Source: Lachnospiraceae bacterium
GTDB taxonomy: Bacteria > Bacillota > Clostridia > Lachnospirales > Lachnospiraceae
DNA length: 46,206 nt
Direction: 5' to 3'
Assembly (NCBI GenBank): GCA_014804285.1
Contig: JAAVAA010000069.1
Location: 47,276-93,481, forward strand
The translations under genes and the position numbers were made by a program. This document shows, in pieces, positions 3,477 through 17,270 of this stretch. Every line of letters begins with the position of its first letter. The stretch's first letter is position 1. Under the pieces are notes generated by a model that ran no database searches, was not told the origin of the DNA, and saw nothing but the letters and a program-made list of their open reading frames with translations.

Positions 3477-3547
<71 letters not shown>

Positions 3548-3550
3548 TAC

Positions 3551-3584
3551 AAAGAGCCTTGATTTATCAGGGTTCTTTCTTTTT
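3551..3584. terminator. Intrinsic terminator between tRNA and integrase
   Basis: AAAGAGCCTTGAT-TT-ATCAGGGTTCTTT hairpin followed by a T-rich tract. Confidence 0.6.
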
Positions 3585-4616
3585 GTGTTGCATTTCGTGT
3601 TGCATGTTTTCAAAATGCTTAAAGGTAATATCTTGAAATTGTTTATTGTAAGTGTCAATTGTTCCTCTGTATATGTCTTTTAAGGTTTTGTCAGAAGCCC
3701 AGCCTCCACGTTGCATGATATACTGATCAGGAACACCCAAAGCGTGCATGATACTGGCAGCATAGTGCCTGAGATCATGAAATCTAAAATGTGTTATCCC
3801 AAGTTTAGTGAGAGTTCTTCCATGCCTTATACTGATTCGGTCAGGATTTATTGATACAACATATCCTTCTTTCGGAAGCATGTCAATAATAAATTGTGGC
3901 ATATTAATGTCCCGTGCACTGGACGAATTCTTGACAAACGGTTTTAATACAAATTGATTATTGCTGTCTTTTACTTTTGCTTGTCTTATATGCAGGGTAT
4001 TCCCAGTTATATGGTTTGCGTCAAGTCCGCAGATTTCAGAACGGCGCAGCGTGCCGAAAGCTGACAGACAGCTTGCAATCAGCATATCATTATCATTTTC
4101 AGAATAATATCTGATAAGTTCCTGAATCTCTTCATCATTCGGGACATATCCGTCATACCTGATTTTCGAAGGAAGAGTAACATTTACAGAAAATGTTTCC
4201 AGATTGTCTTTCATAACCGCACTTAGAAATCCATAGGCATTCCGGACAGACTTCGGAGAATGATTCTCAGAATAACGATTGATCCACCTTTGAAGGGTAA
4301 TTTTGTTTAATTCAGATAATTTTTTGTCTTCAATATCACTGTATGCGCTATTGCGAAGCTGCTCATATCCCCGTATAGTAGAAGGAGAAAGTACTGATTT
4401 TTTTAGGTTGCAATATTCATTCATGGCTTCACACAGTATTATATCTTTTGAGAATTCACTTTCTTCTTTTTGATTGCAGACATATTGTGTTGCCAGCAAT
4501 TCTGCTTCTTTTTTTGTGTCAGCGGTAAAAGACTTATATTTCCGCTTTCCGTGCTCCATGCCTATGTAAATAAGGCATCGGTATTTTCCTGATGGTAGTT
4601 TCTTTGCTGTAGCCAT
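3567..4616 (-). CDS. int: Tyrosine recombinase (phage integrase)
   Basis: LRRSEI, HDLRH, GGW and DIY catalytic motifs; N-terminal arm-binding-like segment; SD GGAGG before MATAKK. Confidence 0.95.
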   Translation of the reverse strand: MATAKKLPSGKYRCLIYIGMEHGKRKYKSFTADTKKEAELLATQYVCNQKEESEFSKDIILCEAMNEYCNLKKSVLSPSTIRGYEQLRNSAYSDIEDKKLSELNKITLQRWINRYSENHSPKSVRNAYGFLSAVMKDNLETFSVNVTLPSKIRYDGYVPNDEEIQELIRYYSENDNDMLIASCLSAFGTLRRSEICGLDANHITGNTLHIRQAKVKDSNNQFVLKPFVKNSSSARDINMPQFIIDMLPKEGYVVSINPDRISIRHGRTLTKLGITHFRFHDLRHYAASIMHALGVPDQYIMQRGGWASDKTLKDIYRGTIDTYNKQFQDITFKHFENMQHEMQHKKKEP

Positions 4617-4776
4617 AGTATTATCCTCCTTAAAAATGATATAAAAATGCCCGGTGACTTGATTTTGCACCGGAAAAATGATACAATTTATTCTGTCATG
4701 AATAAGTTGTATCGGGATTCCCGGTATACCTTGTACCTACCGCTCTGGTGTTGCTGCGTCAGGGCGGTTTTTCTGT

Positions 4777-8348: not shown

Positions 8349-8399
8349 TTGTATTTATTGCCTATGCCCCAATTATGGCATAGGGGAAAGGAAAAGTCA

Positions 8400-8585
8400 A
8401 TGTTAGGGAAAGTGGAAAATTACGATCCTAAAAAGGGATATGGTTTTATCCGGGGAGATGATGGAAAAAAGTATTTTGTCCCTTACTGTAATGTAAACAC
8501 GGCATCGGGAAGTTTATCAGCAGGATATACAGTTGAGTTTAATACCGGTGAAGGAAACAGAGCATTCAATGTGAGATATTTATAG
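8400..8585 (+). CDS. Cold-shock domain protein
   Basis: GKVENY..KGYGFI (RNP1)..YFVPY (RNP2-like)..VEF..A.NV. Confidence 0.8.
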   Translation: MLGKVENYDPKKGYGFIRGDDGKKYFVPYCNVNTASGSLSAGYTVEFNTGEGNRAFNVRYL

Positions 8586-12843: not shown

Positions 12844-13524
12844 ATGAAGAAATATGAATTTACAGGTGAAACAAAGAAGACAGGTATTTTTGGAGATATA
12901 ACGGTAAGAAGAATACGGGCTACAGTAGCATTCGGATTGATTGAAGTGGGTGATCTTGGTGGCTGGATTGAGAAAGAAGAAAATCTTTCCCATGAAAATA
13001 ATGCCTGGGTCTACGGTAATGCCGAGGTCTGCGGTAATGCCAAGGTCTGCGGTGATGCCTGGGTCTACGGTAATGCCAAGGTCTGCGGTGATGCCTGGGT
13101 CTACGGTGATGCCGAGGTCTACGGTAATGCCAAGGTCTGCGGTAATGCCAAGGTCTGCGGTGATGCCAAGGTCTGCGGTGATGCCGAGGTCTACGGTAAT
13201 GCCAAGGTCTGCGGTGATGCCGAGGTCTACGGTAATGCCAAGGTCTGCGGTAATGCCGAGGTCTGCGGTAATGCCGAGGTCTTTTCAGCAAGACACCTTC
13301 TGGTTATCGGACCGATCGGAAGCAGAAATGCTTTTACTACATTTTTCAGGGACAAAGACAAAGAAATAACCGTCAGATGCGGTTGTTTTCTGGGAAAGAT
13401 TGACAAATTCTTAGAAAAAGTTCAGCAGACACACGGAGAGAGCAAATATGCGCTTGTCTACAGAGCAGCGGTGGATATTGCCAAACTTCATATAGATCTT
13501 ACAGAGGAAACAAAAGAAGAGTGA
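12844..13524 (+). CDS. Phage hexapeptide-repeat (left-handed beta-helix-like) protein
   Basis: MKKYEFTGE..GDLGGWIEKEENLS, G[ND]A[KEW]V[CY] repeats, VRCGCFLG C-terminal domain. Confidence 0.85.
   Translation: MKKYEFTGETKKTGIFGDITVRRIRATVAFGLIEVGDLGGWIEKEENLSHENNAWVYGNAEVCGNAKVCGDAWVYGNAKVCGDAWVYGDAEVYGNAKVCGNAKVCGDAKVCGDAEVYGNAKVCGDAEVYGNAKVCGNAEVCGNAEVFSARHLLVIGPIGSRNAFTTFFRDKDKEITVRCGCFLGKIDKFLEKVQQTHGESKYALVYRAAVDIAKLHIDLTEETKEE
13015..13284 (+). repeat. 15 tandem 18-bp coding repeats
   Basis: GGT(A/G)ATGCC(AAG/GAG/TGG)GTCT(A/G)C, plus a partial unit at 12997. Confidence 0.95.
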
Positions 13525-13542
13525 TGTGATCAGATCATGATG

Positions 13543-13596
13543 GAAAGGAGCCGAACCTCCGGCCGGGGTAACGCTATAGCAGGTTCCTTTTGAGAG
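13543..13596 (+). promoter_or_regulatory. Conserved structured leader, copy 1
   Basis: GAAAGGAGC..CCGGCCGG..TATA..TTCCTT; homologous to 14713-14762. Confidence 0.6.
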
Positions 13597-14709
13597 ATGA
13601 AAGAAGTATATAAAAGCAAAGTTTATACAGAAAGACCTGATTACGCTGATTTTAATTCTCCAGCGAAGTTTATGGCAATTCAGAGTATTGTTGTAAAACG
13701 ACTAAGAGAACACCCGAACGCTATTTGTTCTTATTCAGGTGGAGCAGACAGTGACATTATGATTGATATCATAGAGCGGGCAAGGGATTTATTTAAGCTT
13801 CCGCCAATCAAATATTGTTTCTTTAATACAGGTCTGGAAATGAAAGCAATCAAAGACCATGTGAAAGACACGTCCGAGAAATACGGAGTTGAGATTGAAG
13901 AACACCGACCGAAAGTTGATATTGTCACGGCATCCAGAACATATGGAATTCCATTTGTATCAAAAATTATGTCTTCTGGATTATCAGAATGGCAAAAGAA
14001 GAACATTCCACTGTCGATTGCGGAGGAATATGAGCAGGCAGACGATAAAGCGGCGAAGCGGAAAGAGCTGAAAGAACGTTATCCAAAGTGCGAAAGCGTA
14101 ATTAATTTTCTCTGTTGCTGCAACTCTTCGGGTGAACCAAGACCAGATATCCAGCTTGTAATTAACTCATCAAAATATATGCGTGATTTTATCGGGGAAT
14201 ACCCGCCGGATTTTCAGATTAGCGCAAAGTGCTGTGATTACTGCAAGAAGCAGGTTGCACATGATGTGCAAAAAGATTATGACATGATAATCACAGGTGA
14301 GCGTAGAGCAGAAGGAGGTATGAGGTCGGTTCCACGCAAAGATAATACCGCATTGTGTTTTGGAGAACAAGGAAACGGTCAGTACCGGCTGCGTCCGCTG
14401 TACTATGTTACAGACAGGGACAAGGCATGGTATAAGGAATATTACGGCATTAGGTATTCTGATGCTTATGAAGTTTATGGCCTGACAAGGACAGGCTGCT
14501 GCGGATGCCCGATATCGCATAAAGCAGTGGAAGATCTGGAAAAGATCCGTCCATATGAAACAAATGTAGTAAAAGCTGCATGGAATGTATTTGGGAAAAG
14601 TTACGAATACCGTGCGAAATACAATATGTATAAGGCTGATAGGCTTAGGGCTGATCAGGAAGAAAAGAAAAACATAAACGGGCAAATGAATTTATTTGAT
14701 TTTATTTAG
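13597..14709 (+). CDS. PAPS-reductase-family (PP-loop, Cys-rich) protein
   Basis: SYSGGADS PP-loop, CCDYCKK, TGERRAEG, RTGCCGCP. Confidence 0.85.
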   Translation: MKEVYKSKVYTERPDYADFNSPAKFMAIQSIVVKRLREHPNAICSYSGGADSDIMIDIIERARDLFKLPPIKYCFFNTGLEMKAIKDHVKDTSEKYGVEIEEHRPKVDIVTASRTYGIPFVSKIMSSGLSEWQKKNIPLSIAEEYEQADDKAAKRKELKERYPKCESVINFLCCCNSSGEPRPDIQLVINSSKYMRDFIGEYPPDFQISAKCCDYCKKQVAHDVQKDYDMIITGERRAEGGMRSVPRKDNTALCFGEQGNGQYRLRPLYYVTDRDKAWYKEYYGIRYSDAYEVYGLTRTGCCGCPISHKAVEDLEKIRPYETNVVKAAWNVFGKSYEYRAKYNMYKADRLRADQEEKKNINGQMNLFDFI

Positions 14710-14712
14710 AAA

Positions 14713-14762
14713 GAAAGGAGCAAAAGCCCGGCCGGCGAAAGTGTATACAGCTCCTTGGAAAT
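14713..14762 (+). promoter_or_regulatory. Conserved structured leader, copy 2
   Basis: GAAAGGAGC..CCGGCCGG..TATA..GCTCCTT; homologous to 13543-13596. Confidence 0.6.
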
Positions 14763-17270
14763 ATGAATTATCAGGAATTTTTACAAAGCAAGATAGAGCT
14801 TGCAACAGAAAGCGGATTTGAGATTGAACCTTGTAAATTAAATAAAGCGTTACTGCCTCATCAGCGAGATGCAGTTGCCTGGGCGCTCCGTGGAGGAAGA
14901 AGGGCATTATTCGAGTCATTCGGACTTGGTAAGACTGTACAGGAAATTGAGTTCTGTCATCAGGCAGCAAAGCATGAAGACGGGAAAGCACTTATTGTTC
15001 TACCTCTTGGTGTAAAGCAGGAATTTTCTAGAGATGCAGTAGAGCTTATGGGATATGACAAACCTCAGTATGTACGGACTATGCAGGCGGCAAAGGAGGC
15101 AGGAGGAAGACTCCTTTTGACCAATTACGAAAGGGTGCGTGATGGAGATATTGATCCGTCATATTTTGTGGCAGTTTCATTGGACGAAGCCAGCGTGCTT
15201 AGAAGTTTTGGAAGCAAAACATATCAGACATTTCTTGATAAGTTTAAGGGAGTCAAATACAAGCTGGTTGCTACGGCCACGCCATCACCGAACAAGTATA
15301 AAGAGCTGATCCATTATGCCGGTTATCTGGAAGTGATGGATACCGGACAGGCTTTAACACGATTCTTTCAGCGTGATTCATCGAAAGCCAATAACCTGAC
15401 ACTCTATCCGAACATGGAAGATGAGTTCTGGTTATGGGTGTCAAGCTGGGCGCTTTTTATAACCAGACCTTCCGATCTGGATCCGGCATATTCCGATGAA
15501 GGGTATGAACTGCCCCCGCTGGAAGTAAGATGGCATGAAATACCGATAGGGTATGGAAATGCACAAGACAAAGACGGACAGATTTCTTTGTTTTCCGAAG
15601 CGGCAGCAGGATTAAAGGAAGCAGCGGACGTGAAGCGGGAAAGCATTGAGCAGAGGGTTCAGAAAATGAAAGAGATTGTGGAAGCGTCACCGGAAGATCA
15701 TTTCCTTTTGTGGCATGATCTGGAAGCTGAGCGCCATATGATCAGGAAGGAACTGCCGGATACCATAGACATTTACGGTTCCATGGATTATGACGTCAGG
15801 GAAAAACGTGTTATAGATTTTTCAGAAGGAAGAACAAGGCTGTTTGCTACGAAAAAATCATTATCCGGATCTGGCTGTAATTTTCAAAAGTTCTGCCATC
15901 GTGAGATCTTTGTAGGAATTGATTTTGAGTTTAATGATTTTATACAGGCCATACATAGGTGTTACCGATTCCTTCAGAAGAATCCTGTGATTATTGACAT
16001 TATCTATATGGAGAATGAACGCCGGATCAGGGAAGTTCTGCTGGAAAAATGGAAGAATCATGATCATATGGTCAAAAAGATGATCGAGATTGTAAAGAAG
16101 TATGGATTAACCAGTGCGGATAAAACGGAAAGATTAAAGCGGAAGATGGGAGTAGACAGAGTGAAAGTAGAAGGAAAACACTATACGGCGGTGCATGATG
16201 ACTGTGTGGTAGAAACAAAAAGAATGGAAAGTAACAGCGTGGGGCTGATCCATACCTCAATTCCTTTCGGAAATCATTATGAATATTCTGCAAATTATAA
16301 CGACTTTGGCCATAACAAAGACACAGAGAAATTCTTTGAACAGATGGATTTCCTTACACCGGAACTTTTCAGGGTGCTGCAGCCGGGAAGAGTAGCAGCA
16401 ATTCATGTGAAGGACAGGGTTCTGTTTGGAAATGCAACCGGAACCGGAATGCCTACGGTTGAGCCATTCCATGCATTGTGTATTGAACATTATATGAAGC
16501 ACGGATTTCAGTATTTTGGAATGATTACAATAGTGACCGATGTAGTCCGGGAAAACAATCAGACATACCGCCTGGGCTGGACGGAGCAGTGCAAAGACGG
16601 ATCTAAGATGGGGGTAGGGTGTCCGGAATATATTCTTTTGTTCCGTAAACTTCCCACGGATCGTTCAACAGCGTATGCAGATGTTCCGGTGGCAAAATCC
16701 AAGGAAGAATACACGAGGGCACAGTGGCAGATAGATGCACATGGTTATTGGAGAAGCTCCGGTGATAGGCTGGTAAGTAAAAAAGAGCTGGAAAGCATTT
16801 CTGTTGACAATCTGCAGGCAGTCTACAGGAAATACAGCAGGGAGCATGTATATGATTATCATGAACATGTGGAACTTGCAAAAAGACTGGACGAAAAAGG
16901 GAAACTGCCAGCTGTTTTTATGGTAGTGGCCCCGGGGAGCTGGAATAATCTTGAAGTTTGGGACGATATCAACCGAATGAAAACGCTCAACACAAATCAG
17001 AGCAGGCACCGGCAGCAGATGCATGTCTGCCCGCTTCAGATTGACATTGTAGAGCGTATCATAAACCGGTACAGCAATGAAGAGGATGTGGTTTATGATC
17101 CTTTCGGAGGTCTTATGACCGTACCGATGACAGCGGTAAAAATGGGAAGATATGGGAAGGGGTGTGAATTGAATCCGGATTATTACAGAGATGGAGTTGG
17201 ATACCTGCAAGCAGTAGACGATGAAAAAGATGCCCCGACATTGTTTGATTTTCTGGGAGATAAGGCATGA
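14763..17270 (+). CDS. SNF2-like helicase fused to an N4/N6 DNA methyltransferase domain
   Basis: GLGKT, LDEAS, TATP, QAIHRCYR helicase motifs; C-terminal TSIPF, HVCP and YDPFGG..GCELN in beta-class MTase order. Confidence 0.85.
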   Translation: MNYQEFLQSKIELATESGFEIEPCKLNKALLPHQRDAVAWALRGGRRALFESFGLGKTVQEIEFCHQAAKHEDGKALIVLPLGVKQEFSRDAVELMGYDKPQYVRTMQAAKEAGGRLLLTNYERVRDGDIDPSYFVAVSLDEASVLRSFGSKTYQTFLDKFKGVKYKLVATATPSPNKYKELIHYAGYLEVMDTGQALTRFFQRDSSKANNLTLYPNMEDEFWLWVSSWALFITRPSDLDPAYSDEGYELPPLEVRWHEIPIGYGNAQDKDGQISLFSEAAAGLKEAADVKRESIEQRVQKMKEIVEASPEDHFLLWHDLEAERHMIRKELPDTIDIYGSMDYDVREKRVIDFSEGRTRLFATKKSLSGSGCNFQKFCHREIFVGIDFEFNDFIQAIHRCYRFLQKNPVIIDIIYMENERRIREVLLEKWKNHDHMVKKMIEIVKKYGLTSADKTERLKRKMGVDRVKVEGKHYTAVHDDCVVETKRMESNSVGLIHTSIPFGNHYEYSANYNDFGHNKDTEKFFEQMDFLTPELFRVLQPGRVAAIHVKDRVLFGNATGTGMPTVEPFHALCIEHYMKHGFQYFGMITIVTDVVRENNQTYRLGWTEQCKDGSKMGVGCPEYILLFRKLPTDRSTAYADVPVAKSKEEYTRAQWQIDAHGYWRSSGDRLVSKKELESISVDNLQAVYRKYSREHVYDYHEHVELAKRLDEKGKLPAVFMVVAPGSWNNLEVWDDINRMKTLNTNQSRHRQQMHVCPLQIDIVERIINRYSNEEDVVYDPFGGLMTVPMTAVKMGRYGKGCELNPDYYRDGVGYLQAVDDEKDAPTLFDFLGDKA

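Follow-up and report, generated by a model that had tools for sequence, protein, structure and literature searches.

A leader RNA with two self-complementary palindromes and a split ribosome-binding site precedes DNA-modification genes in Lachnospiraceae prophages

The window (the whole 46,206-nucleotide (nt) stretch of DNA that was analysed) holds a prophage adjoining a tRNA gene (3477-3547), with integrase, HTH repressor, ERF recombinase, replication initiator, head, tail and lysis genes. The integrase (3567-4670) directly adjoins the tRNA, whose anticodon loop reads CCC (Gly) in the Rfam alignment, and this tRNA-Gly is likely the prophage integration site. Two genes of DNA-modification type lie in the early region, both on the forward strand. 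The first (gene 1, 13597-14709) encodes a 370-residue PAPS-reductase-domain protein (Pfam PF01507, E 7.6e-11; phrog_424) that matched no PDB sequence relative, and for which we infer a role in DNA modification from its family context. The second (gene 2, 14763-17270) encodes an 835-residue fusion of an SNF2 helicase with an N6/N4 DNA methyltransferase (N6_N4_Mtase; Pfam PF00176 and PF01555); its NCBIfam matches all fall below their cut-offs. Upstream of both, the gene at 12844-13524 contains tandem 18-nt repeats encoding a beta-solenoid (YdcK-like, phrog_7964).

Each of the two genes is preceded by one copy of an element of about 50 nt, arranged as a Shine–Dalgarno (SD) sequence, strand a, palindrome 1, an A-rich linker, palindrome 2, strand c and the start codon. 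Copy 1 begins at 13543 and ends 7 nt before the ATG at 13597. All of its parts lie on the forward strand: the distal SD GAAAGGAG (13543-13550), which is the sole strong SD of gene 1; strand a (GAACCT, 13553-13558), which pairs with strand c in an SD-free state or, in the predicted monomer, with the G-run after palindrome 1; palindrome 1, CCGGCCGG (13559-13566; self-duplex −17.3 kcal/mol), which has compensated variants; an A-containing linker separating the palindromes (13567-13572); palindrome 2, GCTATAGC (13573-13580; self-duplex −10.6 kcal/mol); and strand c with a pyrimidine run (AGGTTC, 13581-13591), whose partner is either strand a or the SD. Both palindromes are putative intermolecular pairing sites. 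Copy 2, also on the forward strand, starts with its distal SD (14713-14720), 4 nt past the gene 1 stop, and ends 6 nt before the ATG at 14763. Its strand a (AGC, 14725-14727) forms 3 bp with strand c, making this copy a weak member for the a:c helix; palindrome 1 (14728-14735) is the same word as in copy 1, CCGGCCGG, palindrome 2 (14742-14749) is a different one, TGTATACA, and strand c, or anti-SD, reads GCTCCTT (14750-14756).

The earlier note had described these twins from the window alone, and their strings, spacings and pairings are exactly as it gave them, including a sole strong SD more than 40 nt from the start codon (AAGGAG ends 46 nt upstream of the ATG in copy 1 and 42 nt in copy 2). 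It had seen the motif before no other gene, which holds: the window contains the shared pattern 2 times, where 100 shuffles give an expectation of 0.00, a covariance model finds no third copy there (next best E 0.63), and a pattern search of the whole genome returned no occurrence beyond these two. Copy 1 is also spanned by a short open frame (13538-13594) of 18 codons with two ATGs, whose stop lies 2 nt short of the ATG at 13597; this frame is generally not conserved across the element family. Elsewhere in the prophage, 8349-8585 encodes a cold-shock-domain protein, a possible RNA chaperone that does not recur in other element-bearing loci.

The element family is common in Lachnospiraceae prophages. 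A pattern scan of viral contigs matched at least 121 stretches, and the family pool (loci L001-L446) held 335 candidate sites, of which 298 passed the parse score with an open reading frame (ORF) and gave 223 unique contexts; the 37 sites left out were shortened, mis-parsed duplicates or without an ORF. These contexts fall into 45 protein clusters, each labelled from one representative. In 180 of the 223, the element directly precedes a methyltransferase (109), PAPS-reductase-like (65), radical-SAM (5) or Mom-like (1) gene, bearing out the link to phage DNA modification proposed from the window; the remainder comprise 5 SNF2-only, 4 HNH, 1 integrase, 1 HTH and 32 unlabelled contexts. The methyltransferases cover C5, N6/N4, D12 and SNF2-fused enzymes and two PHROG families. 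PAPS-reductase-like proteins take part in phosphorothioation systems, as the available text of two articles describes, which argues for a DNA-modifying role (PMC11437467, PMC12707154). The enrichment extends to whole loci: across 15 long, mutually related loci, 14 of 17 element genes are modification-like compared with 18 of 363 other genes, although the relatedness of these loci inflates the statistical significance. Those 18, out of 32 modification-like genes in all, have no called element, and 2 of them carry a divergent copy.

Named relatives place the family in Lachnospiraceae. Strong covariance-model matches (E < 1e-4) were found in 6 of 150 family genomes and 13 of 60 genus genomes, in 1 of 150 genomes of the order sample, itself Lachnospiraceae, and in 0 of 150 of the class sample; since 40-61 candidates were scored per genome and the model, R2, misses window copy 2, these counts do not establish absence outside Lachnospiraceae. 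Those weak matches that were inspected do not have the element grammar. In a pattern scan of genome contigs, the matches listed were mostly chance ones outside Lachnospiraceae, recognised by missing a:c, palindrome 2 and a start codon. Intact copies are present in the cultured Ruminococcus gnavus phages phiRgPS_6 and RG-TP1. Two RNA runs, X1 and X2, turned out to match contigs of relatives at a small word share and are uninformative on expression of the element. One typical Lachnospiraceae-type phage contig with an element (L253) sits inside a Paludibacteraceae metagenome-assembled genome and is probably mis-binned. A divergent copy with an 8-bp a:c helix (L124:1000-1062, 11 loci) stands ahead of a tyrosine integrase and not a modification gene. 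Mom-family acetyltransferase-like genes occur in two Lachnospiraceae prophage modification clusters (L400:1058-1489 and L293), one of them with its own element.

The position of the SD suggests a ribosome-binding site (RBS) in two parts. Across the family, the linear gap between SD and start codon is 39-52 nt; when the segment from a through c is removed, it collapses to 11-14 nt in 198 of 223 contexts. SDs were scored with a 9-nt anti-SD, the assembly having yielded no 16S 3′ end; by this score only 6 of 223 element genes have a proximal SD, which 217 lack, compared with 149 of 219 control genes that have one. A gene-first sample, the best 80 of 376 viral homologues of gene 1 picked by protein and not by motif, gives the same division. 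The 68 homologues with the element all have no proximal SD (−3.3 kcal/mol or weaker), and the 12 without it all have an ordinary one (−4.4 to −11.8 kcal/mol). Two perfect palindromes are present in 61 of the 68, and the other 7 have an imperfect or decayed one. In one lineage (5 of 80 loci) both palindromes have decayed and there is still no proximal SD, which counts against the dimer model developed below. Natural truncations without strand c have a G-rich word 5 nt ahead of the ATG, and in one of these (L046) the distal SD and strand a have decayed. Half-elements without palindrome 2 or strand c also occur in L031, L039, L128, L156 and L121, as in L046 (before an N6/N4 methyltransferase); some have gained a nearby SD, making them natural controls.

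A strong distal SD with no proximal one, and a conserved intervening helix that restores the spacing, make the split RBS well supported by comparison of these sequences. Several features qualify this picture. The collapsed spacing is about 5 nt longer than that of ordinary neighbours (mode 12 versus 7), the two gaps show no mutual compensation, and the spacing-restoring helix is weak in copy 2 and in a second subfamily. In 155 of 161 scorable cases, 0-28 nt separate the end of the upstream gene from the SD. A coding role for the element was rejected, as the upstream ORF enters it in 6 of these 161.

Two competing partners of strand c are evident from the folds. In both window copies, the helix in which the 3′ end of the element sequesters the SD is part of the predicted minimum-energy fold, in agreement with the earlier note. 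Taken one sequence at a time, folding is not exceptional (z −0.1 to −1.0), and the argument therefore depends on comparison. The monomer prediction hides the SD in 83 of 88 variants compared with 30 of 77 ordinary RBSs, and a:c is never dominant in the predicted monomer. Among 42 distinct variants, however, the SD-hiding helix is 88.8% paired (in one register) versus 98.7% for a:c. The latter is 98.7-99.5% paired across alignments, has 4 of 6 pairs compensated in the 42 variants, and contains 40 G-U versus 2 A-C combinations. The competing GAACCT/AGGTTC helix that had been pointed out in copy 1 is confirmed, and no other helix of the family is as well conserved. Within the two commonest lineages, the SD-hiding fold is itself kept (96.8% paired); together with the conservation of a:c, this means that both states look selected. 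The cis-acting mRNA element first proposed, conserved and with both an SD-hiding fold and an RBS bridged by structure, is supported by the 83 of 88 variants, the scarcity of proximal SDs (6 of 223), the 68 of 80 gene-first loci and the enrichment before modification genes. The proposed structure is less well conserved: in the same alignment, pairs changed on both sides number 1 for that structure versus 9 for a:c plus two full palindromes. Almost no unpaired bases are conserved except in the A-rich linker, and the linker next to the palindromes varies freely in sequence. Outside the pattern-fixed SD, the A2 alignment has 3 invariant columns, two of them within palindrome 1, a site that takes 18 words in the wider set.

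The palindromes are the most informative feature of the element, more so than the fold drawn from the window. That fold had the inner stems covarying around CGGCC and TATA loops; the stems do covary, but the supposed loops are the centres of freely changing 8-nt palindromes. When TATA was not required of stem 2, its sequence was altered and the full palindrome kept, and stem 1 in neighbouring copies found without requiring CCGGCCGG was likewise altered yet palindromic. We then used patterns in which only the SD, a and c were fixed and one non-standard palindrome base was forced, in viral contigs. Perfect palindromes were returned in 15 of 15 matches with position 4 of palindrome 2 not A, in 37 of 37 with position 3 of palindrome 1 not G, and in 18 of 18 with position 1 of palindrome 1 not C. 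Pooled, 70 of 70 are perfect, central bases included, against a background of 0.46% for perfect 8-mer palindromes; the 70 come from related phages with about a dozen distinct words and are not 70 independent events. No palindrome-1 variant turned up in viral scans aimed at another subfamily. With a central base of palindrome 1 forced in metagenomes, 8 of 14 matches had no element grammar, and the 6 true elements comprised 3 fully compensated and 3 with single G-to-A changes.

In alignment A3 (40 distinct rows, enriched for palindrome variants by the preceding forced searches), pairing reaches 99.3% for a:c together with both zero-loop palindromes, and 9 of the pairs are compensatory. Two-sided changes affect 4 of 4 pairs in palindrome 1 and 3 of 4 in palindrome 2, including the central adjacent bases, which vary as GC/CG and AU/UA/GC. 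In all, 18 distinct 8-mers occur at palindrome 1 and 19 at palindrome 2. Where a palindrome carries a single mismatch at an unforced position, 5 of 6 are G-U; this excess, like that in a:c, points to the mRNA (sense) strand. A hairpin offers no way for neighbouring bases to pair with each other, and the simplest cause would be that the strand pairs with another copy of itself. The double palindrome appears well supported by this covariation, and RNA self-pairing is probably real. Tandem copies differ in at least one palindrome in 9 of 9 distinct pairs, which a rough word-frequency estimate puts at about 1 in 8 by chance and which we do not count as evidence.

We propose, at a little under even confidence, that the leader would pair two copies of the same mRNA and that the dimer would be the translated state, such that enzyme synthesis would await a high level of phage transcripts. 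In a lone mRNA, strand c would fold back on the SD (the predicted OFF state) and palindrome 1 would be displayed in a hairpin loop. When two mRNAs meet, palindrome 1 would pair with 1′ and palindrome 2 with 2′, which would build a complex of two-fold symmetry, both of whose ends are three-way junctions. Each junction would then be closed by pairing of strand a with strand c, freeing the SD at 11-14 nt from the AUG. The a:c helix abuts both palindromes without a spacer, as expected if all form one structure. Such a two-molecule requirement would set a steep threshold, keeping potentially toxic enzymes silent in the lysogen and turning them on after induction and replication. This would serve a purpose like that of Com acting on Mu mom, without a protein, and fits enzymes harmful to the lysogen, as mom is in the available account (PMC3299994). 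More tentatively, the element may be a switch free of protein and ligand that lets an mRNA register how many copies of itself are present: the split RBS would be rebuilt in a symmetric double three-way junction, and the palindrome words would act as private addresses. If so, different genes and co-resident prophages could be controlled without cross-activation; as each element has two sticky words and an operon up to three elements, higher oligomers could also form.

The energetics divide by subfamily, under a split drawn post hoc with the sequences in view. When both palindrome duplexes form, opening the SD becomes cheaper in 17 of 17 second-subfamily variants, at 4.5 instead of 8.6 kcal/mol. 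In the main subfamily, to which both window copies belong, the energies do not show such a gain: 7.8 versus 8.5 kcal/mol with a:c forced and 6.3 versus 7.0 kcal/mol with a:c unforced (96 variants), and the probability of a:c given a bound SD rises only from 0.15 to 0.33. Nearest-neighbour energies would thus support an active dimer for the second subfamily and not for the window's type. These values come effectively from one parameter set (switching to Turner 1999 made no change) that has no coaxial stacking or tertiary terms, and therefore neither prove nor exclude the direction of the switch. Pairing of both palindromes also needs two loops to interwind, for which the closing helix must open; this counts against the model. 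Members of the second subfamily (L507, L523, L542, L561, L563, L573, L138, L268 and others) have palindromes of 10-14 nt and a weak a:c, with an SD-hiding helix that runs into palindrome 2, making them the best candidates for dimer-driven SD release.

If self-pairing is granted, its sign could be reversed, with the dimer as the OFF or decay state, although we regard this as unlikely. A lone mRNA would then be translated through the a:c-bridged RBS, perhaps aided by ribosomes finishing the upstream gene, and abundant dimers would lock the SD or yield cleavable double-stranded RNA, capping enzyme dosage during phage DNA replication. Close upstream gene ends (in the 155 of 161 cases above) allow such coupling, the best nested dimer is predicted about 18 kcal/mol below two monomers with the SD still paired, and in 50 of 96 main-subfamily variants opening the SD costs more than 1 kcal/mol more in the dimer. 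However, prediction already places the monomer in the OFF state in 83 of 88 variants, leaving a dimer little to repress; dimerising makes the SD of the second subfamily more accessible by about 4 kcal/mol, and the junction of a:c with both palindromes without a spacer is that expected of one structure.

It also seems unlikely, to a similar degree, that strand c is moved off the SD and onto strand a by a small molecule or by a protein of phage or host, in a manner like Com on mom or like a riboswitch, with the palindromes as a dimeric scaffold or binding surface and not a concentration sensor. Extra energy may indeed be needed: despite its conservation, a:c comes at a cost of about 7 kcal/mol in the monomer, and the modelled main-subfamily dimer makes it no cheaper. 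There is also a precedent in Mu-like phages, which in the available text control mom and unrelated methyltransferases through Com (PMC3299994), and one downstream gene here is Mom-like. A candidate trigger does not emerge from the neighbourhood: across about 10 kb on each side in 16 long loci, only the modification enzymes and a replication initiator (9 of 16) recur in most. Few unpaired bases are conserved for recognition, the target enzymes differ in their cofactors, and the element has no Rfam match.

We consider it improbable that the palindromes act instead as double-stranded DNA, whether as methylation targets, sites for a homodimeric regulator or a cassette-recombination site. Every palindrome word is a potential restriction-modification site, and hairpin-like motifs can be DNA sites of homodimeric proteins, in an example from the available text of PMC1950547. 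There is, however, no correspondence between word and downstream enzyme: within the SNF2-methylase cluster, 3 words occur at the first site and 6 at the second, and C5, N6/N4, D12 and PAPS genes share the same words, which counts against methylation-feedback sites. Exchange at the element, the alternative raised in the earlier note, is borne out to the extent that genes are swapped at its boundary, contigs diverge at its edges and identical leaders precede unrelated genes, in prophages of which ours encodes an ERF recombinase. This exchange is explicable by short-homology recombination and reads as a by-product. The 18 and 19 different 8-mers, the G-U bias that marks the sense strand and the way the element stands in for a proximal SD all argue against a DNA-level site, and no listed sigma-70 promoter or intrinsic terminator consensus site overlaps either window copy.

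Equally improbable is a static bridge that dampens translation, in which the palindromes are kept by template-switch mutation and not by selection. Quasi-palindrome correction is a known mutational route, and a few uncompensated and decayed copies exist. The geometry also matches that of phage T4 genes 25 and 38, with 27 nt reduced to 11 for gene 25 in the available text (PMC3014915). In contrast, all 70 forced viral variants are compensated while the neighbouring linker varies freely, and a static bridge would make the stronger competing SD-hiding helix needless. A SAM/SAH metabolite riboswitch is not supported, nor is the suggested monomeric three-way-junction aptamer for SAM, SAH, PAPS or ATP, as there is no invariant unpaired pocket, few unpaired bases are conserved and the downstream genes share no single ligand: 66 of 223 are PAPS-reductase-like or Mom-like, families that are not known to use SAM.

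The element is thus a real, widespread and unexplained RNA element, and the reading first drawn from the window stands in part: the RNA element and its split RBS remain, the ligand aptamer is not supported, and the palindromes had been missed. Homodimer formation is strongly suggested by these comparisons, and concentration-gated activation would be its leading, as yet unproven, function. Functional RNA homodimers are rare, and the natural cases in the available text of PMC7357161 serve packaging, transport or catalysis. A leader that sets its own translation by self-pairing would, if true, be a new gene-control logic, a threshold without protein or metabolite, and would explain how temperate gut phages safely carry swappable, potentially toxic DNA-modifying enzymes. 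Even with the direction reversed, centre-to-centre covariation of two palindromes in a bacterial leader needs explanation. Its 50-nt size, the at least 18 natural words per site and the cultured R. gnavus phages would make for cheap testing and an orthogonal synthetic-biology part.

Known systems resemble the element in single respects. The SAM-III/SMK riboswitch is a small three-way junction coupled to SD pairing, and many of the downstream genes here use SAM; unlike SAM-III/SMK, the element has no Rfam match, no conserved ligand-pocket bases and its SD at the 5′ end. At cassette recombination sites of the attC and PeSL type, a dedicated recombinase exchanges genes; the observation here is confined to gene exchange at the element boundary. 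Rfam 15 at the gathering threshold reports only the tRNA in the window, and an E-value search of 13400-14900 gave two chance matches (E 3.6 and 6.1), neither on the element. Among 10 loci of diverse variants, Rfam matched only an unrelated RAGATH-18 RNA (RF03064; L005:1067-1139), about 430 nt upstream of an element.

The mom mRNA of phage Mu has an inhibitory structure, and a comparable occlusion of the RBS on a modification gene is predicted here in 83 of 88 variants. In both systems a harmful phage gene for DNA modification would be restrained at translation, a Mom-like gene follows one of the elements here, and the Mu-type regulator, in the available text, serves Mom or unrelated methyltransferases (PMC3299994). 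Mu, however, needs the Com zinc-finger protein encoded just upstream (PMC3299994), whereas in the 16 long loci no partner gene recurs in most within about 10 kb on each side. In T4 genes 25 and 38, a distant SD is likewise brought close by intervening RNA structure, and the likeness is one of geometry (27 to 11 nt in gene 25; in the element, 39-52 to 11-14 nt in most contexts). In T4, by the account available, the bridge is one stem formed within a single molecule, and it enhances initiation (PMC3014915), whereas the element has an SD-hiding competitor and two covarying palindromes.

In the literature searched, mostly open-access and including the main text of Weinberg 2017 (PMC5737381), there is no description of the element or of a self-dimerising bacterial leader. 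The closest record is DNAVirus_7602 (Fremin et al. 2023, PMC10690425), 51 nt with 216 sequences, Lachnospiraceae hosts and a both-strand match flag, located upstream of PAPS-reductase genes; in the available material it is one of 10,006 candidates, a bare unnamed row without analysis. It may be this motif or part of it, as compared by length, host and gene and not by alignment. The same source lists DNAVirus_2123, a 54-nt candidate RNA upstream of PAPS-reductase genes in Lawsonibacter and Flavonifractor phages, possibly an analogue in another family (PMC10690425). The nearest relatives in principle are the palindromic kissing loops that dimerise retroviral genomic RNA, the oskar 3′ UTR and the hatchet ribozyme, in which self-complementary words likewise pair two copies of one RNA (PMC7357161). 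The available parts of that article name no bacterial or phage mRNA leader that controls its own RBS by self-pairing. A self-complementary word kept through compensatory change, the mark of palindromic dimerisation, is found here as well; kissing-loop elements use one palindrome, for packaging, transport or crystal contacts, whereas the element has two (PMC7357161).
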